In this document: positions 1 to 58,539 of the stretch, one piece after another
Numbering within the stretch: the stretch's first letter is position 1
Layout: each line of letters opens with the position of its first letter
DNA from: a virus
Strand: one strand, 5' to 3'
DNA: 59,807 nt
Virus record (IMG/VR): IMGVR_UViG_3300045988_174840
Made by a program: the position numbers and the translations under genes
Notes under the pieces: model-generated
Seen by the model: the letters and a program-made list of their open reading frames with translations, nothing else
Told to the model about the DNA's origin: nothing
The model's database searches: none

Positions 1-55
1 AACTTGTTACAATGGTATTATATCGCACCTTAGCTTAAAAGTCAAGCATTTTCGT

Positions 56-235
56 TTATTTTTTAAAATCTTTTAACTGCTGGTTTGTAGACAACTCTTT
101 AATTTTATATTTATGTAATCTGTTGTTTAAACAATAAATGCATGAACCATGGTTTCTGCACTGCATTGATATTGCTTTTGCTTTGCGGTATTCTTTTCTA
201 TGCTCTTTACCACTTTTAATTGCTTTGTCCATCAT
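56..235 (-). CDS. small Cys-rich hypothetical protein (59 aa, MMDKAIKSGKEHRKEYRK...CRNHGSCIYC)
   Basis: Minus-strand ORF below the 60-aa cutoff of the track. The ATG is preceded by an AGGTGG ribosome-binding site. Found by manual translation. Confidence 0.35.
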   Translation of the reverse strand: MMDKAIKSGKEHRKEYRKAKAISMQCRNHGSCIYCLNNRLHKYKIKELSTNQQLKDFKK

Positions 236-252
236 GTTTAACCACCTACTTT

Positions 253-726
253 CTATAAGAAATTTTTTAATACTTCCATGATATTGTTTACATCAAAACT
301 ATTTTTGCCCCACTCTTTTCTATTGCGTTCCTCGTCATCAAAAAGCCATCCCTTACAATCAACGACAGTACTTTTTGGTGTACCATAGTTTACAATTTTG
401 ATTTCATCCCATTCAATACTAGGCAAGTGTTTTTCAAGCCATGCAAGTTTTACACTTGTTACCGCCGTATTATAAGAAGCTGACCCGCTTTTACTTAACC
501 AGCTTACAATACCGATTCTATAGCCATTAGCTTGTAACTTGTGAAGCACTCTTGCGAAAGCTGAAAAATTGAAAAGCGGTTTTGCTACTTTGTATGGTGT
601 AGTATCTTCTTTTTCCAAATATGCTAACCAGTTTTCCACGCCGTAGAAATTAGCAAGTGTGCCGTCCATGTCAAAATAAATAGTTCCCTTTGTGTTCATC
701 ATTTCTTTAATTGTATTATTCATCAT
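253..726 (-). CDS. HAD-superfamily 5'(3')-deoxyribonucleotidase-like hydrolase
   Basis: Track ORF 253..738. HAD motif I FDMDGTLA (DxDxT) lies near the N-terminus. The track start is TTG; the first ATG (MMNNTIK) at 726 follows an AAGGGAAGGA ribosome-binding site. Confidence 0.6.
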   Translation of the reverse strand: MMNNTIKEMMNTKGTIYFDMDGTLANFYGVENWLAYLEKEDTTPYKVAKPLFNFSAFARVLHKLQANGYRIGIVSWLSKSGSASYNTAVTSVKLAWLEKHLPSIEWDEIKIVNYGTPKSTVVDCKGWLFDDEERNRKEWGKNSFDVNNIMEVLKNFL

Positions 727-844
727 AATATCTACCAATCCTTCCCTTTTTGATTATCGCAAGTGCTTTGCGATTGACCGACCAATGATTATGTGAACCT
801 TGCTTTGTTTCTGTTTTTTAAGTTTAATGTCCTTCGACAAGTAT

Positions 845-873
845 ATATTACTACATCTTAGCGAAAAAGTCAA
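845..873 (-). promoter_or_regulatory. sigma-A-type promoter (TTGACT-17-TAATAT) for the HAD hydrolase gene, followed by a leader with a 7-bp hairpin
   Basis: Reverse complement reads TTGACT, a 17-nt spacer, then TAATAT. The leader contains the hairpin ATCGCAA-AGCAC-TTGCGAT. Confidence 0.5.
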
Positions 874-1170
874 ATTTATTTTTTATTGTGCAAAGTGATG
901 AAAATTTTACATAAAAATCATAGTATTTTTGTTAAAATGTACAAATGTAGAAAAATAATGCGGATTTAGGCAGATTTTTGTGCATTTTGCTATCTTAAAT
1001 ATCACATATTGTGTTTCTGCGTGTCAAAAAAGGTATGATTTTTTATTAAAATTTCGTCACTTTGCACAAGGTGTAGAAAATCTTAGCATTATTTTATTAA
1101 ATTTTGTACATTTTGTACACCATGTCAAAAAATGGGATTTTTTTAATTTATTTTTTGTGCAAATTGCCTA

Positions 1171-1200
1171 TTGACAAAAAGGTGCTAGATGTGGTATAAT
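1171..1200 (+). promoter_or_regulatory. consensus promoter P1 (TTGACA-17-TGG-TATAAT, extended -10)
   Basis: Exact TTGACA and TATAAT hexamers with a 17-nt spacer and TGn. The promoter reads into the GC hairpin CGGGGTGCCCCG at 1208..1219. Confidence 0.7.
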
Positions 1201-1245
1201 AAAATTTCGGGGTGCCCCGACCCCGAACGGAATTCGTCTACTTCC

Positions 1246-1274
1246 ATTATAGCATACTCGAGCCACCTTGTCAA
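1246..1274 (-). promoter_or_regulatory. consensus promoter P2 on the minus strand (TTGACA-17-TATAAT), left arm of an inverted repeat
   Basis: Reverse complement of 1246..1274 reads TTGACA, a 17-nt spacer, then TATAAT. It is convergent with P1 across the 1208..1219 hairpin. Confidence 0.65.
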
Positions 1275-1332
1275 GAGAAAAAATGCACAAATTTTAGGAT
1301 AAAAATTTTGAAAAATTTGTGCATTTTTTCTC

Positions 1333-1361
1333 TTGACAAAATGTCTCAACTATGCTATAAT
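1333..1361 (+). promoter_or_regulatory. consensus promoter P3 (TTGACA-17-TATAAT), right arm of the inverted repeat
   Basis: Exact hexamers with a 17-nt spacer. The predicted transcript starts in the GC-rich hairpin 1366..1398, which contains the perfect palindrome GCTCGCGAGC. Confidence 0.7.
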
Positions 1362-1445
1362 GGAAGGCTCGGCTCGCATGGGCTGCTCGCGAGCCGGCTA
1401 TTATAACACATTTTCCGCGACTTGTCAACCCCTTTTAAAAAATTT

Positions 1446-1522
1446 TTTTATTTTCGTCATTTTGCATAAAAATAAAATTCAGCATTTTGCACAAATTTTA
1501 TTTTCGTCATTTTGCATAAAAA
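1446..1522. repeat. two copies of a 27-bp direct repeat TTTTATTTTCGTCATTTTGCATAAAAA, 50 bp apart
   Basis: Identical copies at 1446..1472 and 1496..1522. A related copy (TTTCGTCACTTTGCACAA) sits at ~1052..1073. Confidence 0.8.
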
Positions 1523-1549
1523 AACAAAAGCCTAAATTATATAGGCTTT
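1515..1549 (-). terminator. Rho-independent terminator for minus-strand gene 1568..1774; may also stop plus-strand transcripts from P1 and P3
   Basis: Hairpin AAAGCCTA-AATTATA-TAGGCTTT, followed on the minus strand by TGTTTTTTTATG. Confidence 0.65.
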
Positions 1550-1567
1550 ATCATTACTCTTATTAAG

Positions 1568-1774
1568 TTATTTAGTATTACATTTACATTTTGCTTCTGT
1601 AATAATTTCTGTCTGATTAATTTCTGTATTGCTATTGTTATTAAAAAAATGGTCTGAGCCTTTTGCTAAAAAAACTATTATAGTTGCTAGAATCATTCCG
1701 ATTATAAGAAAACCAATTAGACCATTCAAATCTCTTCTAAATTCTTCATCTGTTGGGGCTTTTTCTTCTCTCAT
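1568..1774 (-). CDS. small membrane protein (68 aa, one transmembrane helix)
   Basis: Track ORF with the hydrophobic segment LIGFLIIGMILATIIVFLA. Confidence 0.45.
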   Translation of the reverse strand: MREEKAPTDEEFRRDLNGLIGFLIIGMILATIIVFLAKGSDHFFNNNSNTEINQTEIITEAKCKCNTK

Positions 1775-1820
1775 TTATTTTTTCCTTTTTTTAGAGTTGT
1801 GAGTTGTGAATTTCATGGAC

Positions 1821-2000
1821 TTAATTATTATTAAGTCCATGAAACTTTTTATTTTCTCGTTTCATTATTGTTTCATAAGCAATCTCTACTATTTCTTTTG
1901 AAATATTTTGATTTTCTGCTATTTTACAGAACATAATCACTGTATCATTTTCAAACCCTTTTACTTTAATTACATTATCCATCATCTCTGTTCTTGTCAT
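1821..2000 (-). CDS. small early protein (59 aa, MTRTEMMDNVIKVKGFENDTVIMFCKIAE...)
   Basis: The first 7 codons of track ORF 1821..2021 lie inside the conserved promoter leader. The true ATG at 2000 follows an AAGAGAGG ribosome-binding site. Confidence 0.5.
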   Translation of the reverse strand: MTRTEMMDNVIKVKGFENDTVIMFCKIAENQNISKEIVEIAYETIMKRENKKFHGLNNN

Positions 2001-2032
2001 TATTGCTTTCCTCTCTTTCATTTGATAATGTT

Positions 2033-2061
2033 ATTATACTATAAAGTCGGCTACTTGTCAA
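2033..2061 (-). promoter_or_regulatory. early promoter-leader cassette copy (TTGACA-17-TATAAT plus leader AACATTATCAAATGAAAGAGAGG)
   Basis: Reverse complement shows the consensus hexamers. The leader is shared with cassette copies at 2956, 3438, 3784, 4170, 4921 and 5977. Confidence 0.7.
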
Positions 2062-2159
2062 CTACATTTTTTAAATGTTTAATTGCTTTTTCTCATTTTT
2101 ACTATCTTTTTCTTTTTTCTTTGTCGCATGAGTTTTTAAAACTCATGCGACTTTTACTA

Positions 2160-2285
2160 TTATTTTATTACTACTGCGTAAGCAAGTTCTACTGTTGTAT
2201 TTGAAACTTCACTTTCTGCTAATTTACAAAACCAGATTGTCAGTTCATCTTCAAAGCCTCTTGCTTTAATCACATTGTCCGTCAT
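2160..2285 (-). CDS. truncated paralog (41 aa, MTDNVIKARGFEDELTIWFCKLAESEV...) of the 1821..2000 protein
   Basis: Manual translation. It shares DNVIKxxGFExxxxIxFCKxAE with the neighbouring gene and has its own promoter at 2318..2346. Confidence 0.4.
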   Translation of the reverse strand: MTDNVIKARGFEDELTIWFCKLAESEVSNTTVELAYAVVIK

Positions 2286-2317
2286 TTCTTTTTTTACTGT
2301 TGTCTTTGACTGTTTTT

Positions 2318-2346
2318 ATATTATCACAAAAGCTTGATTTTGTCAA
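2318..2346 (-). promoter_or_regulatory. promoter (TTGACA-17-TAATAT) for the 41-aa paralog
   Basis: Hexamers found on the reverse complement. Confidence 0.5.
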
Positions 2347-2364
2347 GTTTTTGTGATATTTTTT

Positions 2365-2697
2365 TTACTTTTTTTGTTTAAAATTACTATGTAATTCAAT
2401 TACTTTACCGCAGTTGTCACAAGTCCAATAGTAAATTGTTCCGACATTTTTTATATAGTCTGCGTTTGCAAATCTCCATTTATTTCCGCACTCTACACAG
2501 TAGCCATTGTTCCAATTTACTTTATCGGATGATTGTTCAATTTTAATTAGCCATGTAAAAGTGCATCCTATTAAAAGAGCTAAGATAATGCCAATTACTG
2601 TTTTAATGATTCGATTTCCATTTTCATAAAAGATGTTTACCATAAATCCGCCAACGAATATTGTCATAAGAATCGTTACTAAAATTGTTCTAATCAT
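2365..2697 (-). CDS. membrane protein with two transmembrane helices and a C-terminal CxxC...CxxC zinc ribbon (110 aa)
   Basis: Hydrophobic N-terminal half, then CVECGN...CDNCGK. A promoter TTGACA-17-TATTAT lies upstream at ~2730-2760. Confidence 0.5.
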   Translation of the reverse strand: MIRTILVTILMTIFVGGFMVNIFYENGNRIIKTVIGIILALLIGCTFTWLIKIEQSSDKVNWNNGYCVECGNKWRFANADYIKNVGTIYYWTCDNCGKVIELHSNFKQKK

Positions 2698-2720
2698 TTT
2701 TTAATTCCTTCTTTCTTTAT

Positions 2721-2921
2721 TTATTTATTATTACTATCTCTCTTAACTATATTTATAATATCACATTTTTCGGTTTTTGTCAAGCCTTTTTCCTCTTTTA
2801 AAATTCTATTGATTTGGTTTTTAATATCCTTCAAATCTTCAAGACTGCAATAAACTTTATCACCCCAACCGCCTTTAATTGTATAAGGATAACTCTTATC
2901 ATCACTTTTTTCTACTGTCAT
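2721..2921 (-). CDS. small early protein (66 aa, MTVEKSDDKSYPYTIKGGWGDKVYC...)
   Basis: The first 21 codons of track ORF 2721..2984 are the translated promoter cassette. The true ATG at 2921 follows the conserved leader and an AGAGAGAGG ribosome-binding site. Confidence 0.5.
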   Translation of the reverse strand: MTVEKSDDKSYPYTIKGGWGDKVYCSLEDLKDIKNQINRILKEEKGLTKTEKCDIINIVKRDSNNK

Positions 2922-2955
2922 TTTTATCAACCTCTCTCTTTCATTTGATAATGTT

Positions 2956-2984
2956 ATTATACTATAGGTCTTAACAAAAGTCAA
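2956..2984 (-). promoter_or_regulatory. early promoter-leader cassette copy (TTGACT-17-TATAAT). The -35 sits inside hairpin GGTCTTAAC-AAAA-GTCAAGACC, followed on the plus strand by TATTTTATTTTTT
   Basis: Seen on the reverse complement. The hairpin plus T-run reads as a terminator on the plus strand. Confidence 0.65.
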
Positions 2985-3002
2985 GACCTATTTTATTTTT
3001 TC

Positions 3003-3404
3003 TCAAATTTTTGTTATTCCTCTGTCTTTCAAATATTCACAAAAACTATCAGAGTCAAGCATTTTCGCAATGTCTTTCATTGAAACGTTCATTTTGTTAT
3101 ACACACAACGTACTTCAATAGGTTTAAATTTTTTTTCTGTAATAGCTGTTGATAAAGAATCTTCTACATTGCTTAATCGAACAACTCTTTTTTTAAAGAA
3201 ATTTTTTGAAATTTCAGCATTTATAAATAAACCTTTTTCAACTAAATTAATCAGTTCGTCAAAAGTGTTGATTGTAAAGTTCCTTGTCTTTGCTTCTGCT
3301 TCTTCTGGGGTAAGGTATCTTACGTGTTCCCAGATACTTGTATCAACAAAGTTTTTTCGACCCTCTATTCTGTACTTGAATCTATAATCATAAACTTCTT
3401 TCAT
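3003..3404 (-). CDS. hypothetical early protein (133 aa)
   Basis: Track ORF 3003..3413 starts at TTG. The ATG (MKEVYDYRF) at 3404 follows the leader AAGAAAGAGGTTGATAAAA. Confidence 0.5.
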   Translation of the reverse strand: MKEVYDYRFKYRIEGRKNFVDTSIWEHVRYLTPEEAEAKTRNFTINTFDELINLVEKGLFINAEISKNFFKKRVVRLSNVEDSLSTAITEKKFKPIEVRCVYNKMNVSMKDIAKMLDSDSFCEYLKDRGITKI

Positions 3405-3437
3405 TTTTATCAACCTCTTTCTTTATTTTCTATATTT

Positions 3438-3466
3438 ATTATACAGTATCTATTGACTTTTGTCAA
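3438..3466 (-). promoter_or_regulatory. early promoter-leader cassette copy (TTGACA-17-TATAAT)
   Basis: Reverse complement. The same downstream element TCAAGACCTATTTTATTTTTT occurs as at 2984. Confidence 0.65.
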
Positions 3467-3481
3467 GACCTATTTTATTTT

Positions 3482-3742
3482 TTATTTTGGAAGGATAACC
3501 TCAGCTTCGACAGGTACTACTTTCTCAGATGCCATAAAAGCTTTCATATATCCCGTAGCAAGATTAACCGCAATGAATCTACCTTTTTGTCTTTCCAAGA
3601 AAAAACCGCTATTCCTATCAATAATCATGTACAACCCGATTTCATCAATACCACCTCTTTGACTAATACTGAAAAAAGTTTTTCCTATTGTCAAGTCATT
3701 GATGCAAATTTCTGTTGCTTTTTTATCATAGTTGATTTTCAT
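3482..3742 (-). CDS. hypothetical early protein (86 aa, MKINYDKKATEICIND...)
   Basis: Track ORF with the cassette promoter 3784..3812 upstream. Confidence 0.5.
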   Translation of the reverse strand: MKINYDKKATEICINDLTIGKTFFSISQRGGIDEIGLYMIIDRNSGFFLERQKGRFIAVNLATGYMKAFMASEKVVPVEAEVILPK

Positions 3743-3783
3743 TTTTGTTTTCCTCTCTTTTTCTTTCTTTTATTTCTGTATTT

Positions 3784-3812
3784 ATTATATCATGTAGGGG
3801 CTGAAATGTCAA
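3784..3812 (-). promoter_or_regulatory. early promoter cassette copy (TTGACA-17-TATAAT). The -35 is embedded in hairpin AGGGGCTGAAATGTCAACCCCT (3796..3817)
   Basis: Reverse complement. The plus strand shows the hairpin followed by ATTTATTTTTTAAT. Confidence 0.65.
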
Positions 3813-3826
3813 CCCCTATTTATTTT

Positions 3827-4135
3827 TTAATGATTAAACCGCAGATAATTTTTAATCCAGTTTTTACCAAACTCTTTTTCTAACTGTTTTTCCTCTTCTG
3901 GGTTCGTTTCCATGATTGAGATTTTCATAATTGAATCCCAGTCCATAGTTGTAAACCACGTTCCCTCTTTCATGCCTTTACTAAAGTGAAAAGTGTCAAG
4001 AATAAAATCCATTGTTTCCTGTCGTTTAATTGTTTTCATACATTCTTCTAAAGAAAGAACCCGATTGTCAAAAACTGGTTTAGTTTCAAAACCTGTTACT
4101 TTCCATCCGCTAATTTTACTTTTAATTTTTAACAT
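3827..4135 (-). CDS. hypothetical early protein (102 aa)
   Basis: Track ORF 3827..4144 starts at TTG. The ATG (MLKIKSKISGW) follows the leader AAAAAGAGAGGTTGATAAAA. Confidence 0.5.
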   Translation of the reverse strand: MLKIKSKISGWKVTGFETKPVFDNRVLSLEECMKTIKRQETMDFILDTFHFSKGMKEGTWFTTMDWDSIMKISIMETNPEEEKQLEKEFGKNWIKNYLRFNH

Positions 4136-4169
4136 TTTTATCAACCTCTCTTTTTCATTTGATAATATT

Positions 4170-4198
4170 ATTATACACTACTTTTGAAAATCTGTCAA
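4170..4198 (-). promoter_or_regulatory. early promoter-leader cassette copy (TTGACA-17-TATAAT)
   Basis: Reverse complement of TCATTTGATAATATTATTATACACTAC...TGTCAAGAC. Confidence 0.65.
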
Positions 4199-4300
4199 GA
4201 CTTTTTTATTTTTTTCTTAACTATTTTTTTTACTTTCAACCATGTTTTTTGTTGTTGCTTTTTTATCATAATTAATTTTCATTTTAATTACCTCTCTTTC

Positions 4301-4483
4301 TTATTTAATTTCTTTAAAGATACTTTCATCTGTGGCATTACATAACTTATTATTTACGTTATACTTAGCATAAAGCCACTTTTTACAATCCCATTTTAGC
4401 GGACAATGATAACAAGTTGTAGTAAAAGCCGTGGTTTCCATCGGAATTGCAAGAAATATCTTTTTAAGTTTTTTAGTTATCAT
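4301..4483 (-). CDS. hypothetical early protein (60 aa, Cys-containing)
   Basis: Track ORF with a strong AAGGAAGGAG ribosome-binding site. Promoter 4517..4545 lies upstream. Confidence 0.5.
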   Translation of the reverse strand: MITKKLKKIFLAIPMETTAFTTTCYHCPLKWDCKKWLYAKYNVNNKLCNATDESIFKEIK

Positions 4484-4516
4484 ATTATTTTTTTCTCCTT
4501 CCTTTTAACTATCTTT

Positions 4517-4545
4517 ATAATACCATATTAAAATTATTTTGTCAA
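4517..4545 (-). promoter_or_regulatory. promoter (TTGACA-17-TATTAT)
   Basis: Hexamers on the reverse complement. Confidence 0.5.
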
Positions 4546-4624
4546 TCCCCTTTTATAAAAAATTATAAAAAAGGAAGATTTTTTATCTTCCTTTTACTTT
4601 TGTTTTATTCTTGTTTTTTTATTT

Positions 4625-4786
4625 TTATCTTAATAATCTTAATAAATAGTTATTTTCATGCTCTTTCAAAAAAGCGTTAATTTCTTCTATTGTTTCAGCG
4701 TAAATCTCGCCTGTCTCAGTGTCTACAAGCATCAATTTTTTACTTCCTAAAAATAATCCTAAATCTAACATATTTAAGCCCTCCAT
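4625..4786 (-). CDS. small hypothetical protein (53 aa, MEGLNMLDLGLFLGSKKLMLVDTETGEIYAETIEE...)
   Basis: Manual translation of an ORF below the track cutoff. Its start overlaps the stop of the upstream 39-aa ORF (TAATG). Confidence 0.3.
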   Translation of the reverse strand: MEGLNMLDLGLFLGSKKLMLVDTETGEIYAETIEEINAFLKEHENNYLLRLLR

Positions 4787-4905
4787 TAAGAAATTTTTAC
4801 CAGATAACCGTTTGTATTTTTTTCTACTGAAAAAATGTATTGATTATCTTTTAAGTATTTTTTTACAGTTTCAAATGCTTTTCGAGTTGTCAGTAACATT
4901 GTCAT
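4786..4905 (-). CDS. small hypothetical protein (39 aa, MTMLLTTRKAFETVKKYLKDNQYIFSVEKN...)
   Basis: Manual translation. It follows cassette leader ...AAAGAGAGGTAAAGGGAT and a promoter near 4921..4970. Confidence 0.3.
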   Translation of the reverse strand: MTMLLTTRKAFETVKKYLKDNQYIFSVEKNTNGYLVKIS

Positions 4906-5083
4906 ATCCCTTTACCTCTCTTTCATTTGATAATACTATGATACTATATTTCTTTGCTTTTGTCAAGCATTTTAGGAAAATTTTCTAAAGATTTTTTTAT
5001 GCGGATTTCCGCTGGAAAAACCTGAACTTAAAGAGATTATAGGCGAACCGACTCCAGAACTATCAAGTTCGGGAGTCCCTTTT

Positions 5084-5254
5084 TTATTTAAGGAATGATT
5101 CTAAAGCCTTGTAGCATAAATCAGCGTTTTCTTTATCTTTTATGCTAGTACCTTTAGAAAAGTCATTCATAGCGGCTGTCAGTAGTTCTGGTACTGAAAT
5201 AAATTCAAATACCAACTGTAAAGCCGCCAATTCATTAAGATTGACTTTTTTCAT
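5084..5254 (-). CDS. small hypothetical protein (56 aa, MKKVNLNELAALQLVFEFISVPELL...)
   Basis: Manual translation. An AAAGGAGATAAG ribosome-binding site and a TATAAT -10 lie upstream. Confidence 0.35.
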   Translation of the reverse strand: MKKVNLNELAALQLVFEFISVPELLTAAMNDFSKGTSIKDKENADLCYKALESFLK

Positions 5255-5400
5255 CGGTTCTTTCTTATCTCCTTTTTAAATATTTTATTTTCTTTACATT
5301 ATTATTATATCAAATTTTTTAATAAAAATCAAAAAAGATACTTTATCTAAACAAGCAAAGAAAAGGGCTGAACTTATTCCGCCCTTTTCCCGCTTCCCCG

Positions 5401-5667
5401 CTATCCTATTATCTCTGCATTTGTAATAATATCATCTGTCACGTTGTCAGTCCCTAAAGAATCCATGTATAATTTAACTCTATCTTTTGCTTTAAAACCG
5501 TCTCCATAGAAACTCCAAACATGTCCGTAGCTATCCATAACCACCACCTCATCATTAAAAGAGCTAATCACTTTAGCTTCTCTTGTATACTTAGTAAAGC
5601 TACCAAAACCGCAAATACTACTTAAAACTGCACTTACTGCTAATCCTAAAATCACCTTTTTCATCAT
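5401..5667 (-). CDS. secreted or lipoprotein-like small protein (signal peptide MMKKVILGLAVSAVLSSIC)
   Basis: Track ORF 5401..5679 starts at TTG. The first ATG at 5667 is followed by a hydrophobic signal sequence. Confidence 0.45.
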   Translation of the reverse strand: MMKKVILGLAVSAVLSSICGFGSFTKYTREAKVISSFNDEVVVMDSYGHVWSFYGDGFKAKDRVKLYMDSLGTDNVTDDIITNAEIIG

Positions 5668-5669
5668 AT

Positions 5670-5948
5670 CTAACTCCAACCTCTTTCTTTCTTAATCTTT
5701 TCGTATCTTTCTTTTGCTTCTTTTTCAATCTTCTTTTTGTCATACATTCTAATTTTCATTCTAGTATATCCGTCTCTTTTTAAACACCAACGTTCTGTTT
5801 TACGTTGTACTACTATTTTATCAATAGCTCTTTGCTGTACCTCTTGCTTATGAGTGTTGTAATATTTGATACTCTCAATTTCTAATAAAGTACTTATTGG
5901 TCTGTACTTATTGGTTACACTAAACAAAGTGCATTGAATTGTTATCAT
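5670..5948 (-). CDS. hypothetical basic protein (92 aa, K/E/R-rich C-terminus)
   Basis: Track ORF. Cassette promoter 5977..6005 and leader AAAAGAGAGGTGATAAGAAG lie upstream. Confidence 0.5.
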   Translation of the reverse strand: MITIQCTLFSVTNKYRPISTLLEIESIKYYNTHKQEVQQRAIDKIVVQRKTERWCLKRDGYTRMKIRMYDKKKIEKEAKERYEKIKKERGWS

Positions 5949-5976
5949 CTTCTTATCACCTCTCTTTTCAAGTATT

Positions 5977-6005
5977 ATTATACTACCTTATTATACCATT
6001 GTCAA
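5977..6005 (-). promoter_or_regulatory. early promoter-leader cassette copy (TTGACA-17-TATAAT)
   Basis: Reverse complement reads CTTGACAATGGTATAATAAGGTAGTATAATAATACTTGAAAAGAGAGG. Confidence 0.65.
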
Positions 6006-6412
6006 GCGTTTATTTATAGTATTTTTATTCGTCTTAATGCATATTTATTTATGTATATTTATTCACATTGCTAGTTAGCTTTACATATTTTATATTTATA
6101 TCCTTTTATAAATTTTATAAATTAAATTATAAAATAAAATATAATATATCAGTTATTGCATTGTTTTACTTAATATTTATTTAAGCATATCTTTCTTATT
6201 ATACTATTATGTTATTCTATTATAACTATTATAAGACAAGAGTCTTACGTTGAATACACTATTATTATTATTGTAACACTTCTATAAAAGTAATTACATA
6301 ATATAAAATATTATTATACTTATACTTTGTATGTATTGTTATAGTATAATATTATTATACTGTTATTATTATTATTATTATTATCTTTCCTTTATCTTAA
6401 GCTTAATCTCTC

Positions 6413-6441
6413 ATTATAACACCTTTAGCTCATTCTGTCAA
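6413..6441 (-). promoter_or_regulatory. consensus promoter (TTGACA-17-TATAAT) reading leftward into the 6000-6400 AT-rich non-coding block
   Basis: Reverse complement reads TGTCTATTGACAGAATGAGCTAAAGGTGTTATAATGAGAG. The -35 lies within a TGTC-N4-GACA palindrome. Confidence 0.65.
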
Positions 6442-6720
6442 TAGACATTTTACACAATTTTTTCTTTTGATTTTCGTGCAGATTGACCATTGACATTTCT
6501 TGTCTATTGACATTTTGTACAAAAATCAAATTATATTTTTGTATACTTTTACCATTGACAGGACTTGTCAATAGACATAATGCACAAAATTTTCCTTGCA
6601 TTTTTGTGCAATTTTACCTATTGACAAACTCATTTTAGGAAAATATCTTTGTGCATTTTTTACAAAAATTTAGCCAAAAATTTGTGCATTTTGTCTATTG
6701 ACAGGCTTCTCGGAGCGTTG
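6420..6720. repeat. cluster of 7 YTATTGACA sites in both orientations, including two TGTC-N4-GACA palindromes, interleaved with TTTGTGCA motifs
   Basis: CTGTCAATAGACA at ~6436 and ~6566. CTATTGACA at ~6503, ~6618 and ~6695. CCATTGACA at ~6487 and ~6553. Confidence 0.75.
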
Positions 6721-7261
6721 CGAAAGTATACGCTCCGATGGTAGATGGCAAGCTACCAATAGCCAATAAAATTCTAATCTTCTTGCTTTATTTTAATTAT
6801 TTAAAGAATTTATTTTATTAGTTTAACTCTTTCTCCTCTTTATTTAAAATAATGTGTTCAAAATCCTTCTGAACAAAAAACATATCCTCTTTGGAAAATG
6901 ATTTGAAAAATTATTTGTTAGGCGGTGTTTTGTTGCTTCTTACTCAAAAGAAAAGACCAATCTACAGACCATACCCAAACATAATACCCGGGCTATATTA
7001 AAGGATTAAAATTTTTTACTTTTATAAAAAGATAGTGTTCTCCACAATTCTCTCTCCAAAAAAATTTTTAAATCTAAAAATTGAAGAAAATGAAGAAGAA
7101 AAAATTGAAATAATTCTCCTTCCAAAAATTTTAGAATCTAAGAATCTAAAATAAAAACTTTAAGGATTCTAAATATTAAAAAATTTTCTTCTTCTTCTTC
7201 TTTAAAAAATGCGTGAGTGTCAAGTTAATCTCCGAAATACGTTTAAAAGCTTAGTAATCAT

Positions 7262-7486
7262 CTAAAACATCGCGTTTGCCTGTTCATAATATTTTAATTC
7301 TTGAATCCAAGCGATTGGAATTACCATTTCCGCTTTAGCGTATCTTTCTATAGCATCCATGATTTCATGTCTCCTAGTATTGATTATTTCTAATCTAAAA
7401 GTTTCACGCGGAACCAATCCTGCAACTGCAACTGCAACTGTTTTCTTTGCTTTCCCTGTTTCGTTATTCATAGTCATATTACTCAT
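7262..7486 (-). CDS. hypothetical protein (74 aa)
   Basis: Track ORF. Confidence 0.4.
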   Translation of the reverse strand: MSNMTMNNETGKAKKTVAVAVAGLVPRETFRLEIINTRRHEIMDAIERYAKAEMVIPIAWIQELKYYEQANAMF

Positions 7487-7498
7487 ATTATTTTCCTC

Positions 7499-7843
7499 CT
7501 ATTTTACTATTTTAATTACTTTACCATGTTTTCCGCTCATTTTCATTTTCATAATAATCTTTCTAATTATTGCGTCTTTTCCATCATAAAAAAGTATAGC
7601 AAAATCAATATTATCTACCATTTTCTGAATTAATTTATCTATATTGCGATCAAATATATATTCAATAGGAGCACCATTATTTTCTGCCCATATTTTTCCA
7701 ATAGACTCCGAGAGCTTCTTCTCCGTATTCCCGCAAACAACAGTAAACAAGTAACACTGCGTTTCACAGATAAAATCTTCCATAGCTGCGGAGACTAGGC
7801 GATTATCCGCGAAACCGCGACTTCCAAGAATACTAATTCTCAT
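7499..7843 (-). CDS. SLOG/YpsA-like (DUF1273-type) Rossmann-fold protein
   Basis: The pattern ILGSRGF...GN...FAILFYDG...KIIM resembles the B. subtilis YpsA layout (LTGYKAHELGIF...GGAMGVD...ALLAIYDEE). AAGAGGAAAAAGAG ribosome-binding site. Confidence 0.4.
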   Translation of the reverse strand: MRISILGSRGFADNRLVSAAMEDFICETQCYLFTVVCGNTEKKLSESIGKIWAENNGAPIEYIFDRNIDKLIQKMVDNIDFAILFYDGKDAIIRKIIMKMKMSGKHGKVIKIVK

Positions 7844-7924
7844 CTCTTTTTCCTCTTGTTTTATTTATAAAATAATTATAACAAAAATTTTTTAAAAAAT
7901 CCAATTAAAGTGCTTTAATCAAAT

Positions 7925-7953
7925 TTGACAAAAAAATTTTTTTGTGGTATAAT
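7925..7953 (+). promoter_or_regulatory. consensus promoter (TTGACA-17-TGG-TATAAT) for the morphogenesis operon
   Basis: Exact hexamers with an extended -10, almost identical to P1 at 1171. AAAGGAGA ribosome-binding site and ATG at 7981. Confidence 0.65.
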
Positions 7954-7980
7954 ATAATTGTAAATTAGAAAGGAGAAATT

Positions 7981-9138
7981 ATGACACCAATAATAATAGA
8001 AGATGAAGCTTTTGAGGAGAATATTTTAGAAGAAGAAAAAACAACAGAAAAACAAATCAAAGAAGAAAATATACAAACTACTATTAAATTAGATTATTCT
8101 TTAGAGACTCCTGAAGAGCGGAATGAATTAGTTAAAAAAATTATAAATAATACTCCTTCTGAGCAATTAACACCTAGATATTTAGAAATATTGTCAGATT
8201 ACATTATTTTTGCTATGGATAAACAAGAGCGGAAACAAAAGCAAATATTAACTGATAATCACATGGTCACAGTTAACAAAAGAGAAACTTCTTTTGAAGG
8301 ATTAGTTGGTCGCTTAGAGAATGGCGAAGATGGCATTTATAATATGATTGCTAATGATAAGAATATTATCTTTACACCTAAATTTCAAATAACTCAACAA
8401 GATATTGCGGAAATCCCCGAGTTAAAGCAACTTGTAGACGCGATTGCGGAAGTTGAAAAAGCTGAGAAAAAAGCAGTTGGTAAAAAGAAATTTTTATTAA
8501 AAAAGCAACTTATTGCTATGAGACAAGATCAATATGTAATTAGAAGTGCATATAAGCCGCCAATTTATTGTATGAACGCAATTAAAAGTTTTAGCAAAAT
8601 TGATTTTGATGAAAATGTTTCTATTAGCGGAGATGATGAAATTGAAGATAATAGCTTAGTTTCTTTTTTTAATCCTAAGCACGTATCTGCGTTATTATGT
8701 AACTATTCCCGCCTAAAAGAAGATGCATGGGGAAAATTCTATAGTGATTCATACTTTTTAATGGAAGATTTAGATACATTAATAGAAAAGACTTTAAGAG
8801 ACAGCTATCCAATGTATTATGACCTCTTGATTTATAAAATAGATGGAAAACAAAATCTTGAAATTCAAAGCCTATTGAATCAAAAGCATAATGTAAAACA
8901 TTCAGTGGAATATATATCATCTTTGTGGCGGAATAAGATACCTAAGCTATTGTCAGAGCAAGCTCAGGAAGACTACTTAATTTGGTATTATACGACTCAG
9001 AAGAAGGGAAAATGGAAAAAATGTTCCCGCTGTGGGGAAATCAAATTAGCTCATAATAAATTTTTTTCAAAGAATAAGACAAGCAAAGATCATTTTTACA
9101 GTATATGTAAATGTTGTCGAAATAAGAAAAATAAGTAA
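7981..9138 (+). CDS. hypothetical protein with a C-terminal Cys4 zinc ribbon (385 aa)
   Basis: CSRCGEIK...CKCCRNKKNK at the C-terminus. First gene of the late operon. Confidence 0.55.
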   Translation: MTPIIIEDEAFEENILEEEKTTEKQIKEENIQTTIKLDYSLETPEERNELVKKIINNTPSEQLTPRYLEILSDYIIFAMDKQERKQKQILTDNHMVTVNKRETSFEGLVGRLENGEDGIYNMIANDKNIIFTPKFQITQQDIAEIPELKQLVDAIAEVEKAEKKAVGKKKFLLKKQLIAMRQDQYVIRSAYKPPIYCMNAIKSFSKIDFDENVSISGDDEIEDNSLVSFFNPKHVSALLCNYSRLKEDAWGKFYSDSYFLMEDLDTLIEKTLRDSYPMYYDLLIYKIDGKQNLEIQSLLNQKHNVKHSVEYISSLWRNKIPKLLSEQAQEDYLIWYYTTQKKGKWKKCSRCGEIKLAHNKFFSKNKTSKDHFYSICKCCRNKKNK

Positions 9139-9150
9139 AGGAGGCTAATA

Positions 9151-10350
9151 ATGAATTATACTTGCAACAAATGCGGAAAATCAATGGATGAAATAAATTT
9201 TTATACATATAAAAATGGTAAAAAAACAGAATTATGTAAAAAATGTTTAACTATGCATATAAATAATTTTGAACCTAATACTTTCCTATGGGCATTAGAA
9301 AAGATGGATGTTCCATATGTTCCAGAAGAATGGAATATTTTAAGGGATAAAGCCTATGCAAAAGATCCTTATAAAATGAATGGGATGTCAGTATTTGGAA
9401 AATATCTTTCTAAAATGCGGCTAAAACAGTGGAAAAATTATAGTTGGGCAGATACAGAAAAGATTGCTCAAGAAAAAGAAAAAAAGACTCAAGAGGATCT
9501 CGAACAACAGAAAAAATTTGAAGAGAGTATGAAGCAACAGCTTGAAAAAGGGGAAATTTCTGAAGCTGAATACAAAACAATGGTTTCTACCCCTACTCAG
9601 AACGCGGAATTGGCGGTAAAAGCTCCTAAGAATGAGATTGGAACTGACAATTTTTATGATGAAAATAATTTTATAAGCGAGGATGAATTAATTGATCCCG
9701 CCGCGGAATTAACTCAAGAAGATAAGATTTACTTAGCTATGAAATGGGGACGTTTATACAAACCAAATGAGTGGGTTGAATTAGAGAAAAAATATGAAGA
9801 GATGACTAGTTCTTTTGATATTCAAGATTCAGATACTACAGGAACTTTAATTCTTATTTGTAAAACCTATTTAAAGATGAATCAGGCGATCGATTGCGGT
9901 GACATGGATGGATACCAGAAATTATCTAGAGTATACGATTCATTGCGTAAATCCGCAAAATTTACAGCCGCACAAAATAAAGAAGTAAAAAGTGATTTTG
10001 TAGACTGTATTGGAGAGATGGTTGCCTATTGTGAAAAAAATGGCGGTCAGATTCCAAGAATGAAGATAGAGGCTCCAAATGATATAGTAGATAAGGTTAT
10101 CATGGATTTAAAAGAGTATACGAGATCATTGATTTATGATGATAAATCCCTTGCTCAACAGATAGAAAATTATATTAAGCAGAGAGAAAATGCGGATGCG
10201 ATGAAGAAAGATAGAGAAGAAGCTAAAGAAAAAGGCTATAATCAAATAGAATTAAAAGATAGAGATTATCAAACTTATTTTGACAATATTGCAAAAGAAA
10301 AAGAAAATGATGAAAAAATTTATATAGGAGAGGATGAAGACTTTATATGA
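9151..10350 (+). CDS. hypothetical protein with an N-terminal zinc ribbon and a charged coiled-coil; terminase small subunit cannot be excluded
   Basis: CNKCGKS...CKKC in the first 35 aa. It lies immediately upstream of, and overlaps, the large terminase gene. Confidence 0.45.
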   Translation: MNYTCNKCGKSMDEINFYTYKNGKKTELCKKCLTMHINNFEPNTFLWALEKMDVPYVPEEWNILRDKAYAKDPYKMNGMSVFGKYLSKMRLKQWKNYSWADTEKIAQEKEKKTQEDLEQQKKFEESMKQQLEKGEISEAEYKTMVSTPTQNAELAVKAPKNEIGTDNFYDENNFISEDELIDPAAELTQEDKIYLAMKWGRLYKPNEWVELEKKYEEMTSSFDIQDSDTTGTLILICKTYLKMNQAIDCGDMDGYQKLSRVYDSLRKSAKFTAAQNKEVKSDFVDCIGEMVAYCEKNGGQIPRMKIEAPNDIVDKVIMDLKEYTRSLIYDDKSLAQQIENYIKQRENADAMKKDREEAKEKGYNQIELKDRDYQTYFDNIAKEKENDEKIYIGEDEDFI

Positions 10351-55905: not shown

Positions 55906-57322
55906 TTATTCTCCTTCCATACCATATCTAACATGCTCTAGTTTCATATCTGAACCATTGACGTCAATAATCTTGTAGAGCTGATGGGTAGGGGTATGTT
56001 TATACGATTTAGTCTGAAATGTATCTCCACGCCTAAACCCAGTACACATTACTTTTGTTCCTCTTTGAAACCAGCCTTTTTCCATAACTTTTTTAGTTCC
56101 ATCTTCTTGCTTTTCAGAAATTTGTCTCCCAAACATAGCAAAGTAATCTTTTGTAAATTTTACATTAACAACTCCAGAAGTTGTTAATAATGATATTGAA
56201 GAACGAGCATCATTTTTACTGATTACAGTGCCAATGATTTTATAAGTCTTATAAATAGGGATTTCTTTTCCATTTCTTTTGAAAAAATAATCTACAACAG
56301 GCTCTTCGGGTAATTTAGAAAAATCTGAAATTCCATACTTTAAAGTATCAATATTTATTAATTCATGTGGATGATAATAAAAACATAAGCTTTCCATTTC
56401 CCACGCGGAAATATTTCCTTTAGCATATTTATTCCAAGAGTCAAGAAATAAAGCCTCATTAAATTCTTTTAATACTGTCTGTTGATTCTCTTTAAGCCAA
56501 TCTCTAGCTCTATCCATGCCTTTTTGATACTTTTTATCCCATTTGTTTTGTAAAATACAAACGCATCCGTTTATCACTTCAAGGTCTTCCATATCGTATC
56601 TTTGATTGTAGAATTTTTCACAAGCATCATCAAAGACATAATATTTTCCAACTTTTTTCTCAGTTTTTAGATACTTATTAAAGAAAAATAATCTTTTCAT
56701 ACTATCTAAAGAAGGTGGAATTAAGTCTTTTTGAATTAAACCATTAAAGTTTTGTAGCGTTAATTTCTTTTTTGGTTCACTAACAACAGACAGATAATAT
56801 ATCATTACAAGCACTCTTGGTTCAACATTTAATTCTTTTGCCCATTCTAATTCCAGTTTATCAAAAGCTCCGCTCTTTATTAAGGAAATCATTGCAGATT
56901 TATTTAAAGGACATCTTATCATAAAGTCTTTAATGCTTTTATATGGTCTACCAGAAAAAATCTGCTCAATAATTGGTGCACCTACATTACTCAATGCTTT
57001 CATTCCAAAAAGAATTTCGTTGTTTTCAACATCTGGCTTAAAGCTATAGTCAGATTTATTTATATCAACTAAAGAAATTTTTATTCCTCTTGATAAAATA
57101 TCTCCAATAGCCTTAGCTATTTTACTATAATCCGTAGATTTTTCTTTCTTTTTACTTTCTTCTGTTTCTTCTTCATTTTCAATATTATCTTCTTCTAAGG
57201 CTCCACTATTTACAATTAAACACGCGGTATTCCAATAGATAGGATTCCATCTTGTGGCTATGTATATAGTTTGAAATCCTATGAAAGAGTAAGCCAGGGC
57301 ATGTATGCATAATTTAAAATTA
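55906..57322 (-). CDS. dnaE: DNA polymerase III alpha subunit (DnaE-type), C-terminal exon or segment
   Basis: The open frame extends upstream of track ORF 55906..57003 to the stop at 57334. It encodes ...FNFKLCIHALAYSFIGFQTIYIATRWNPIYWNTACL (cf. DnaE GYGFNKSHSAAYALVSYQT..HYPAEFMAA). The HhH region ALSNVGAPIIEQI...SLIKSGAFD and a C-terminal OB-fold follow. Confidence 0.7.
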
Positions 57323-58539
57323 CTGACTATTTTTTACAGACGTTGTAGTGAGATTTTGGCTTTTCTCTTGTCTGCACACTATTTCCCAAAACGTATCAAT
57401 AGTTTCAGTACTCCCCGTCTAACCAGGGATAGTCGATACAACATTTTTCTTTTAATAGATTTATTTATTATCTCTAAGAGGGTATTTATATTTTTCTTTT
57501 TTATGAGAACGTCCTGCGTTAATATTTTTAATTGTTGCATAGCTTTTATTCCATTTTTTTGCGATATCTTTTAAAGATAAATCTGTTTCTAAAATATCTT
57601 TTATAATACCTTGAATCCAGATTTCATTTTTAGCTTTATTACCACCTTTATCACAAAGAGGGTAGTTATCCTTATCACTATAAAAATATTTTCCTGTATT
57701 TATCATAGATAAAAATCCAGCTGATTTAATTCCAAAATCTTCTTGAATTGTTTTATATTTTTCTCCGCTTTTAATTCTATCTTTTATTTCTCTAATTTCT
57801 TTTTGAGAAAAGCGGCTTTTAGAATTTTTCTTTAAAGGATAATCAAACTCTTCATTAAAATAATTTGTTCCAGTATTTATATTAACTAAAAACGTTCTTT
57901 TTAACTTAGGAAAATAAATTTTTTCAATATCATCATATTCTTCATCATTCATTAGACGATTTTGGATATCAATAATTTCTTCTTTTTTAAAGAGTTTAGA
58001 TCGGTTTAATTTTTCTTCATACGTTAAAGGTTTTCTTTTATATCCTTGTCCGCCTAAAGTAATATTATATCCATTTTCATCTTTTAAAGAATGATAATAT
58101 TGAATAAAATAAATTTCTCTTTCGTCAATATATTCTTGAGATTCTCCATCAGCAATCTCTTCAAGAATATCAAAATTAAAATTATCCCAACCATATTTTC
58201 TTATGGCTGCGTGAAATGGCAAATTATAGCCAGAAGTTTTTTCATTAAAAGACTCACTTTTATGTCCATTTTTTCTTTTTTGAACATTATTAGTTTGTCC
58301 GATATAAATTTTACCATTTGTTTTATTTGTAAATTTATAAATATAGTACATAATATTCTCCTTATACATTGTTTTACTATTCTCATGTATAACTGAAAAA
58401 TACTATACCTCTATTAAAGAAATTTGTCACGAGATTTAACCCTCGTTAGCAATTAAAACCATATTTGCCAAATATGTAAATGTTTTAATTACCCCACTGA
58501 TAAGTGGTTAAGTGTGTAAGCACCATTCACACAATGCTA
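57323..58539 (-). other. ~1.2-kb intervening sequence interrupting dnaE; candidate group I intron carrying a homing endonuclease gene
   Basis: The upstream frame ends in-frame with ...GYSF then SIV-stop. The downstream frame has no nearby ATG or ribosome-binding site. The proposed junction, with the 5' exon ending in T and the intron ending in G, restores GYSFNFKLCIHALAY. Confidence 0.5.
57461..58351 (-). CDS. GIY-YIG homing endonuclease, free-standing inside the dnaE intervening sequence
   Basis: N-terminal YYIYKFTNKTNGKIYIGQT...KRKNGH (GIY-YIG motif). Perfect AAGGAG ribosome-binding site 6 nt before the second ATG at 58351; track ORF starts 6 codons earlier. Confidence 0.8.
   Translation of the reverse strand: MYYIYKFTNKTNGKIYIGQTNNVQKRKNGHKSESFNEKTSGYNLPFHAAIRKYGWDNFNFDILEEIADGESQEYIDEREIYFIQYYHSLKDENGYNITLGGQGYKRKPLTYEEKLNRSKLFKKEEIIDIQNRLMNDEEYDDIEKIYFPKLKRTFLVNINTGTNYFNEEFDYPLKKNSKSRFSQKEIREIKDRIKSGEKYKTIQEDFGIKSAGFLSMINTGKYFYSDKDNYPLCDKGGNKAKNEIWIQGIIKDILETDLSLKDIAKKWNKSYATIKNINAGRSHKKEKYKYPLRDNK

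Follow-up and report, generated by a model that had tools for sequence, protein, structure and literature searches.

A conserved array of paired promoter half-sites with 65-bp spacing in the early region of a common gut phage: anatomy, conservation and possible function

Genomic setting

The window analysed here is a stretch of phage DNA of 59,807 nucleotides (IMG/VR record IMGVR_UViG_3300045988_174840) with a G+C content of ~ 30%. Short leftward (minus-strand) genes occupy positions 1–7900, while the rightward genes, starting at 7981, encode a 385-aa protein, a YonG_N protein that is probably the small terminase, the large terminase, the portal, a tape measure of 2843 aa, and others. Nucleotide-metabolism and replication genes are leftward again, starting past ~ 50.7 kb. 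The early region, from position 1 to ~ 8 kb, contains eleven perfect sigma-70-type promoters (TTGACA, 16–18 nt, TATAAT; 12/12 matches), eight of which point leftward, and includes a weakly supported 5′-deoxyribonucleotidase-like gene at 253–738. The packaging/head module is SPbeta-like (Pfam YonG_N, YonD_N and YonB), and the closest cultured relatives are siphoviruses of Enterococcus, Brevibacillus and Geobacillus with genomes of 134–142 kb. The phage is very common in the human gut; an exact copy of the 385-aa protein is present in more than 240 contigs, the longest being ~ 139 kb, and one NCBI copy carries the label Megamonas funiformis, which suggests this species as a candidate host.

The array under study sits in a 1.26-kb non-coding stretch (6000–7260) separating two groups of leftward genes, and the small- and large-terminase-like genes begin 2.4 kb to its right. 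The coordinates of its parts, and of the related cluster discussed below, are collected in Table 1. Two open reading frames that cross the array (6425–6601, minus; 6483–6638, plus) were rejected as genes, since conservation tracks the 65-bp site pattern and no similarity was found to proteins of two distant relatives, the lineages L017 and L035. No tRNA genes were found, and no known RNA family was detected at gathering thresholds; the matches at relaxed thresholds were spurious microRNA-hairpin assignments on a 55-nt inverted repeat at 1241–1366. When positions 5500–8000 were compared with deposited phages, no similar DNA was retrieved except for a 61-bp promoter match in phage phAss-1, which lacks the array motif despite this match. 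A literature search on the motif words returned only primer noise.

Table 1. Positions of the array, its single complete promoter, the adjoining features and the second cluster of two-part sites in the window
Feature	Position	Strand	Description
A+T-rich tract	6010–6405		Non-coding, 84% A+T, 396 bp, directly downstream of the 6441 promoter; (ATT)n run at 6364–6385
Sole full consensus promoter of the array (6441 promoter)	6413–6441	minus	TTGACA (-35, 6441–6436), 17-nt spacer, TATAAT (-10, 6418–6413), TG before the -10; 12/12; leftward into the A+T-rich tract
Unit 1	6436–6500		12-mer TGTCAATAGACA 6436–6447, holding the minus-strand -35 TTGACA 6441–6436
Unit 1, upstream elements			TACACAAT 6451–6458 (minus); TTCGTGCA 6473–6480 (plus); then CCATTGACA 6487–6495
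Unit 2	6501–6565		TGTCTATTGACA 6501–6512; TGTACAAA 6516–6523; TTTGTATA 6538–6545; CCATTGACA 6552–6560
Unit 3	6566–6630		TGTCAATAGACA 6566–6577; TGCACAAA 6581–6588; TTTGTGCA 6603–6610; CCTATTGACA 6617–6626
Tail	6631–6703	plus	Orphan TTTGTGCA 6648–6655; last complete half-site, TTTGTGCA 6681–6688 plus TGTCTATTGACA 6692–6703
Two G+C-rich hairpins	6711–6757		CGGAGCG/CGCTCCG 6711–6737; GGTAG/CTACC 6740–6757; z = -4.0
Second cluster of two-part sites	1154–1428 (cluster spans ~ 950–1500)	both	With perfect -10 hexamers

Anatomy of the array

The array consists of three tandem palindromic units of 65 bp, starting at 6436, 6501 and 6566, and a tail of 73 bp. Repeat finding recovered the three copies with start-to-start distances of exactly 65 and 65 bp. 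Each unit is an imperfect palindrome of ~ 60 bp composed of TGTCWATWGACA (with the minus-strand -35), 3 nt, TGYACAAA, 14 nt, TTTGTRCA, 9–10 nt and TTGACA, and the starts of its back-to-back upstream elements are separated by 22 bp in every unit (6451/6473, 6516/6538 and 6581/6603). The third unit is the best palindrome of the three, with a z-score of -4.6 for its single-stranded DNA fold. In total the array holds eight half-sites, whose -35 part is usually CTATTGACA. Both TTTGTGCA-type elements of the tail are found at the same register in L017 and L035, one of them being a base short in L017. On the left, the sequence of the A+T-rich tract is weakly conserved and its composition is retained; no minus-strand ORFs were found in it. 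On the right, the two G+C-rich hairpins adjoin the last half-site, and the stem of the second (6740–6757) is indel-polymorphic and not kept in the close relative L001.

An initial annotation of this DNA had listed seven YTATTGACA sites, lying in both orientations and overlapping -35 hexamers. The orientations, the overlap and the total of seven stand, with seven YYATTGACA sites in 268 bp (6436–6703); only five of them match YTATTGACA exactly (6436-, 6504+, 6566-, 6618+ and 6695+), the other two being the CCATTGACA copies at 6487 and 6552. Across the whole window YTATTGACA occurs eight times against 1.84 expected, a number reached in none of 100 shuffles. The same annotation had counted two TGTC-N4-GACA palindromes, which was too few: there are four copies of the 12-mer TGTCWATWGACA (6436, 6501, 6566 and 6692), all of them within the array and with 0.00 expected in the window. 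Exact TTTGTGCA is present in the array at 6581-, 6603+, 6648+ and 6681+, with degenerate copies at 6451 (TACACAAT), 6473 (TTCGTGCA), 6516 (TGTACAAA) and 6538 (TTTGTATA). The window as a whole contains 13 exact copies (2.57 expected), four in the array and five at 977–1495. Our analysis revealed that the two motifs constitute a single two-part half-site, TTTGTRCA-N9/10-TTGACA, with six exact occurrences in the window against 0.00 expected, all confined to the two early-region clusters.

Based on 35 aligned sites with a 9-nt gap, taken from the window and its relatives, we derived the consensus AAAWW-TTTGTGCA-WWWTnnCTA-TTGACA. The half-site spans promoter positions -57 to -30, of which -57 to -53 form an A-tract. 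Within TTTGTGCA the G, G, C and A hardly vary (conserved in 27–35 of the 35 sites), which points to base-specific recognition and may speak against a plain A/T-rich UP element. The spacing of back-to-back upstream elements was 22 bp in 11 cases and 32–33 bp in nine, and 68 further phage sites gave a similar picture, with 22 bp in 17 and 31–32 bp in 15; these spacings are one helical turn apart, as would suit proteins that meet on the same face of the helix. The upstream motif differs by lineage, being ACTTTACATGTAAAGT instead of TTTGTGCA in L012, while in L008, L009 and L011 TTTGTGCA is absent and no upstream motif could be recognised. Such differences fit a co-evolving phage factor. All lineages show enrichment of CTATTGACA in their early regions.

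Promoters with and without a -10

The initial annotation had proposed that promoter-like elements fire both ways from this region. Leftward this holds, with the single 12/12 promoter of Table 1; rightward it is weak, as the two candidates, at 6507 and 6621, score 10/12 in total and have the poor -10 hexamers AATTAT and TATCTT. At the seven half-sites other than that of the 6441 promoter the best -10 scores 2–4 out of 6, short of what defines a sigma-70/sigma-A promoter. Nor are bidirectional promoters a conserved trait, given that the arrays of L017 and L035 have no usable promoter; they contain one and zero promoter-like pairs, respectively, compared with 3.1 and 2.1 in shuffled sequences, despite six to eight -35-like hexamers.

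Elsewhere, the same half-site is part of complete promoters. In the second cluster, three promoters bear the upstream element (plus-strand 1171, plus-strand 1333 and minus-strand 1274), each with TATAAT at 17–18 nt past the two-part site, and with a fourth promoter, at 1428 on the minus strand, they make up two convergent pairs that enclose G+C-rich hairpins. The two-part site also stands before a perfect -10 in L004 (5407), in L014 (1015 and 6438) and at several places in L001. It follows that the half-site corresponds to positions -52 to -30 of real early promoters of the sigma-70 consensus type. This favours the earlier suggestion of operators overlapping promoters: in the window, L001, L004 and L014 one short site lies over the core of several early promoters, the two-part site at -52 to -30 of perfect early promoters outside the array is what a protein-binding site would look like, and the array itself is linked to transcription by the one real promoter at its left edge, which opens a leftward early transcript.

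Conservation among lineages and strains

The array is kept in the close relatives L001, L002 and L007, which have 96–97% identity in the neighbouring protein. In L017 (63% protein identity) and L035 (63%; on the same contig as L010) we found the same layout of three 65-bp units and a two-element tail, at a distance from the 385-aa gene that differs from that in the window. A lack of conserved site spacing in relatives had been named beforehand as refuting; the 65-bp spacing is kept in three lineages, and this check did not refute the proposal. Over 255 bp the window can be aligned to L017 without a gap, with 77% identity in site columns and 41% in non-site columns (Fisher p = 3e-9), the latter value being about background; the register of this alignment is unique, the runner-up registers being those shifted by +/-65 bp. 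No protein encoded within 5 kb of the arrays was common to the window lineage and L017/L035 at E = 1e-5, so the array outlasts its neighbouring genes. The suggestion that the region is a master early-control region fared less well: the L017 array lies ~ 9 kb from the divergence point, within the early region, so a position at the head of early transcription is not conserved.

Among 14 near-identical strains, variable columns made up 44% of the A+T-rich tract, 28% of the right non-coding part, 23% of the hairpins, 11.6% of the array and 6.7% of the 6441 promoter core. The 6441 promoter was the least variable segment (2/30 columns), and the array with its promoter was the least variable part of the ~ 1.3-kb non-coding region. 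The TTGACA hexamers were invariant in all 14 strains, and the changes within sites fell mostly at the R/Y positions of TTTGTRCA. A looser array of two units, again with a 65-bp period, is present at the end of L029, an unrelated phage contig of 48% G+C from the same metagenome. The array is real and far beyond chance, its sequence and spacing are conserved, and its function is putative.

Occurrence in other genomes

A scan of 185,579 species genomes (596 Gb) for TTTGTGCANNNTNNCTATTGACA identified at least 120 loci. Most of the matches listed were from metagenome-assembled genomes (MAGs) of gut Clostridia. Among these listed matches, ~ 58 loci were phage-like early regions with 5–21 consensus promoters per 8 kb, evidently mis-binned, as they were assigned to very different taxa; in them the two-part site usually drives a short G+C-rich hairpin. 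Another ~ 55 of the listed loci look chromosomal, and a good -10 follows 30 of 53 such sites, which recur at acyl-carrier-protein (~ 11 promoters), iscS-like and hisZ-like genes and include MarR-type genes. The 22/32-bp partner element of the phage sites is absent from the chromosomal ones. An Rfam scan of 18 chromosome-like loci found no rRNA, which rules out rRNA promoters as their identity. By our estimate, chance together with shared descent would yield about as many independent chromosomal promoter families in a scan of 596 Gb as were counted. Given this estimate and the absence of the partner element, host use of TTTGTGCA, which is possible and unproven, is not relied on below.

Discussion

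The explanation that we tentatively prefer, short of even confidence, is that the array is a cluster of operator or docking sites for a putative factor reading TTTGTRCA beside a -35 hexamer. Each site would be the upstream half of an early promoter of a special class, in which TTTGTRCA at about -52 to -45 is followed by 9 or 10 nt and TTGACA. Since a full -10 is present at only one of the eight half-sites, and a usable one at none in L017 or L035, we infer that the conserved job of the array is being bound rather than starting transcription. The binder would recognise TTTGTRCA next to the -35 in a sequence-specific manner, and a phage-encoded regulator is favoured by analogy with the SPBRE operator and the MrpR repressor of SPbeta. 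Such a factor may occupy the array cooperatively, and the occupied array would control the 6441 promoter as well as other promoters with the upstream element, either by blocking sigma-A from the -35 or by holding RNA polymerase in place.

Against the operator model, no DNA-binding protein could be assigned to the sites: the early ORFs of the window and of its left neighbourhood gave no convincing Pfam or PHROG match to a DNA-binding protein. A winged-helix protein is encoded nearby only in L017/L035, at 1.4 kb from the L017 array, and blastp found no homologue of it among ORFs within 5 kb of the window array. The neighbouring 385-aa protein carries the PHROGs label 'sigma factor'; this assignment was rejected, as the protein has no Pfam match and a profile of eight sequences matched no solved structure, and its phylogeny does not track the upstream motif. 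Two further observations speak against the model. On chromosome-like contigs of gut Clostridia the motif also stands at genuine promoters, and this would be easier to reconcile with a host factor, or with RNA polymerase itself, than with a regulator from the phage. In addition, the array does not keep its place relative to the early/late divergence point.

The closest documented parallel in logic comes from the ~ 134-kb Bacillus phage SPbeta, in which SPBRE, a short element at about ten early or regulatory promoters, is bound by the master repressor MrpR, also named YopR (PMC10516654). SPbeta, like the window phage, has the packaging/head genes YonG_N, YonD_N and YonB. From seven SPbeta promoter regions we derived SPBRE as (C)AAATACAAAAAATATGTATAWAA, located over the spacer and the -10, whereas the array site sits upstream of and over the -35; the two sequences are unrelated, and in the published account and promoter regions consulted here SPBRE takes the form of single copies linked to promoters and does not build a phased 65-bp array of promoterless sites. 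SPBRE was therefore rejected as the identity of the array, AAATACAAAAAATATGTATAWAA having no resemblance to the half-site, and no MrpR-like protein was seen in the window. Sigma-70/sigma-A promoters with UP elements, or with factor sites abutting the -35, share with the array a perfect -35 and the A-tract at -57 to -53; in contrast to UP elements, the upstream element of the array has conserved G/C positions, and most of the array is without a -10. In its general form the array would be a set of repeated binding sites linked to promoters.

The array could instead be a replication origin, either with the phased repeats as initiator iterons or with the 6441 promoter priming an R-loop in the A+T-rich tract; we consider this unlikely, while giving it some weight. 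Origins made of a promoter and an A/T tract are found in T4 and T7, and here a perfect promoter reads into an A+T-rich tract free of ORFs. The regularly phased repeats (three units, 65-bp period) adjoin that tract of 396 bp and 84% A+T, a likeness to iteron-type origins such as lambda ori and those of iteron plasmids, and L017 has an A+T-rich stretch (79% A+T, 601–800) on the same side of its array. Moreover, the element is better conserved than its flanking genes, as expected of an essential cis-acting site. However, the repeats of iteron origins are direct repeats of ~ 20 bp, compared with a 65-bp period of alternating orientation in the array; no initiator-like gene was recognised within 5 kb (Pfam and PHROGs, most ORFs being without any match), and the replication genes are more than 40 kb away on the map. 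Many ordinary promoters also carry the half-site, which forms at least three clusters in each genome; in iteron plasmids, too, iteron-like half-sites act as operators at promoters. In L017 and L035 no promoter points into the A+T-rich side. The cumulative GC-skew minimum near 8 kb, which might be taken as support, coincides with the switch in gene orientation and is therefore uninformative on the origin. Strict DnaA boxes (TTWTNCACA) were dismissed as the identity of the sites: they are not enriched (12 against 8.2 expected in the window, one of them in the array at 6448), and at the positions that the TT end of the box would need, the alignment has T in place of A.

More doubtful still is an explanation in which the array, without a dedicated phage regulator, serves host sigma-A RNA polymerase or a host promoter factor as a docking pad or decoy. 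The anatomy would be unchanged and the binder another: polymerase would be captured through the -35 and upstream contacts without initiating, which would concentrate it near the early promoters, or would draw it, or a host factor, off host genes. The invariant part of every site is indeed the -35 hexamer, CTATTGACA is enriched across lineages, and the arrays of L017 and L035 contain fewer -10 hexamers than expected by chance. Further points in favour are the good -10 that follows the two-part site at 30 of the 53 chromosome-like sites, and the looser 65-bp array in the unrelated L029 contig. A related Enterococcus phage, VRE9_2, bears cre-like, Rex-like and ARG-box-like palindromes at the equivalent non-coding position. 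On the other hand, the chromosomal promoter families are near chance plus shared descent by our estimate and their sites have no 22/32-bp partner of the phage type, while the conserved G/C positions misfit UP-element recognition by the alpha subunit. We know of no precedent for DNA-based trapping of polymerase by a phage.

A bolder version, which we regard as just as doubtful, would make the array a non-productive trap, that is, phased front halves of promoters purged of their -10 that act as a DNA sponge or an entry checkpoint. Such a trap might soak up host RNA polymerase or a promoter factor, or might hold the entering genome at a defined point, in the manner proposed for the T5 injection stop signal; this, too, we think quite unlikely.

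Some other cis-acting site for DNA handling, such as a T5-like injection checkpoint, a plasmid-type partition centromere or a packaging/terminus signal, is improbable. The injection stop signal (iss) of T5-like phages, which are large siphoviruses, is a repeat-rich untranslated early region that is better conserved than the adjacent genes; it has direct repeats of 66 bp, pairs of 9-mers separated by 3 bp, and related copies at a distance of a few kb (10.1101/866236). The array is formally parallel, being a complex, repeat-rich segment within a large untranslated part of the early region and better conserved than the neighbouring genes, with units of ~ 65–66 bp, paired 9-mers 3 bp apart and related clusters a few kb apart, and the early region encodes a 5′-deoxyribonucleotidase-like protein, as in T5. 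There is, however, no sequence similarity; the iss is defined by DnaA boxes, whereas the 9-mers of the array fail that consensus, the TT not being kept at the required end, and the function of the iss in T5 itself is only a hypothesis (10.1101/866236). A partition site would be in line with the plasmid-prophages among the relatives of this group and with the ParA of phage Sundance (PMC4909266), but no partition gene (ParA/ParB, ParM/ParR or TubZ/TubR) was found in the ORFs on either side of the arrays in the window, L017 and L159–L162. The terminase-like genes that begin close to the right of the array might suggest a packaging or terminus signal; this was rejected, because long contigs start at many positions with no fixed end at the array, and the distance to the terminase is not conserved, being ~ 10 kb in L017.

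Finally, an ordinary two-way cluster of early promoters, or decayed and functionless tandem duplicates of a divergent promoter pair, is very unlikely, for although the region belongs to the 8-kb stretch with eleven 12/12 promoters and the unit resembles a divergent promoter pair upstream of its -35s (compare 1269–1338), a usable -10 is present at only one of eight half-sites and at none in other lineages, and the sites and their exact spacing are kept while the spacers are randomised, in what is the least variable non-coding segment of the population.

An element kept across lineages whose flanking genes all differ is probably essential to the infection programme. Under the operator/docking explanation, the 65-bp unit offers a defined probe with which to fish out the protein that would run early gene control. 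Provided that the sites bind without firing, they would give a clear example from nature of promoter halves put to a second use purely for binding, and a warning that counts of -35-like hexamers overcall promoters in phage early regions. Should the trap be true, it would represent a new class of cis-acting phage element made of promoter parts, one that would go with the widespread early-region modules in which a strong promoter is combined with a G+C hairpin, often in convergent arrangement.

Equivalent regions in related phages

Enterococcus phage VRE9_2, a cultured relative, carries an equivalent non-coding region of 1.5 kb (PP680568.1, 131.2-132.5 kb; 8500-9700 of its locus, L022). It contains two copies of TGTAAGCGCTTACA, which fits the CcpA cre consensus, as well as three Rex-like palindromes of the TTGTGAAATATTTCACAA type and further palindromes that are ARG-box-like. 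The locus has a third TGTAAGCGCTTACA copy at a distance of about 8 kb. Given these cre-matching, Rex-like and ARG-box-like palindromes, the VRE9_2 region looks like a cluster of host-regulator sites. In the sister lineage L012, another palindrome, ACTTTACATGTAAAGT, is densely arrayed at 700-780, 2130-2560 and 5700-6160, with TTGACA hexamers interleaved and G+C-rich hairpins adjoining; the architecture is shared, and the motif differs. Within the window itself, a 32-nt stretch starting with CATTTTAGGAAAAT is common to the array tail and a second position; it bears a loose likeness to the CodY box (consensus AATTTTCWGAAAATT). The array-tail copy is kept in close relatives and is not conserved in the diverged lineage L017.

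Early-region genes, interrupted genes and contig starts

The gene of the 385-aa protein, the first rightward gene beyond the array, is predicted to be driven by a perfect promoter. The protein had no Pfam match and, with an eight-sequence profile, none among solved structures; its C-terminal tail is Cys-rich and zinc-ribbon-like. Like the T5 pre-early region, the early region encodes a 5'-deoxyribonucleotidase-like protein, and SPbeta YoqJ may belong to the same family as the small YspA/SLOG-like protein.

Features of the window, with coordinates
Feature	Position	Strand	Remarks
5'-Deoxyribonucleotidase-like protein	253-738	minus	NT5C just under Pfam cutoff; PHROG E = 1e-11
Convergent promoter pair 1	1171 versus 1274	plus versus minus	around one G+C-rich hairpin, 1207-1227
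Convergent promoter pair 2	1333 versus 1428	plus versus minus	around one G+C-rich hairpin, 1371-1395
32-nt stretch, second position	4968-4999
32-nt stretch, array tail	6631-6662
Small YspA/SLOG-like protein	7499-7843	minus	early region
Perfect promoter	7925-7953
385-aa protein	7981-9138		PHROGs label 'sigma factor', putative
DNA polymerase, two pieces	58527-59606 and 55906-57003	minus	whole span 55906-59606
Homing-endonuclease gene	57461-58369		between the polymerase pieces

Besides the DNA polymerase, which is split around a homing-endonuclease gene, the YonG_N gene of the relative L160 is interrupted by a NUMOD3 endonuclease, and the large-terminase ORF of the close relative L001 is shortened. 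Three independent assemblies (L166-L168) start at most 25 bp from window position 1 (within 1-30), and many contigs of this phage measure 59-64 kb. The shared starts do not look like a genome end, because other contigs read through this point; they suggest that assembly repeatedly breaks here, probably at one of the clusters of repeated promoters.

Promoter and hairpin modules

Between 1154 and 1440, the window has two convergent pairs of perfect sigma-70-type promoters. RNA from the minus-strand promoter at 1274 would be only about 40 nt long, with a terminator at its end. The second hairpin retains its stem in close relatives, while its loop is inverted in L007 compared with L002 and deleted in L001.

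A module consisting of a TTTGTGCA-type consensus promoter, GGAAAtTTCG and a G+C-rich hairpin, in that order, is present on at least 58 phage-like contigs among the matches listed (L039-L158; for example L050, L055, L067, L128 and L144), where a convergent promoter often faces the hairpin. Binning has placed these contigs in MAGs from taxa as unrelated as Bacteroidales, Treponema and Methanobrevibacter, and the stem sequences vary from copy to copy. In the same matches, the first 55 transcribed nt at the module have a median G+C of 0.53, and their median folding energy is -14 kcal/mol, versus -8 at chromosome-like sites. The module may represent an undescribed small-RNA or DNA-hairpin family.
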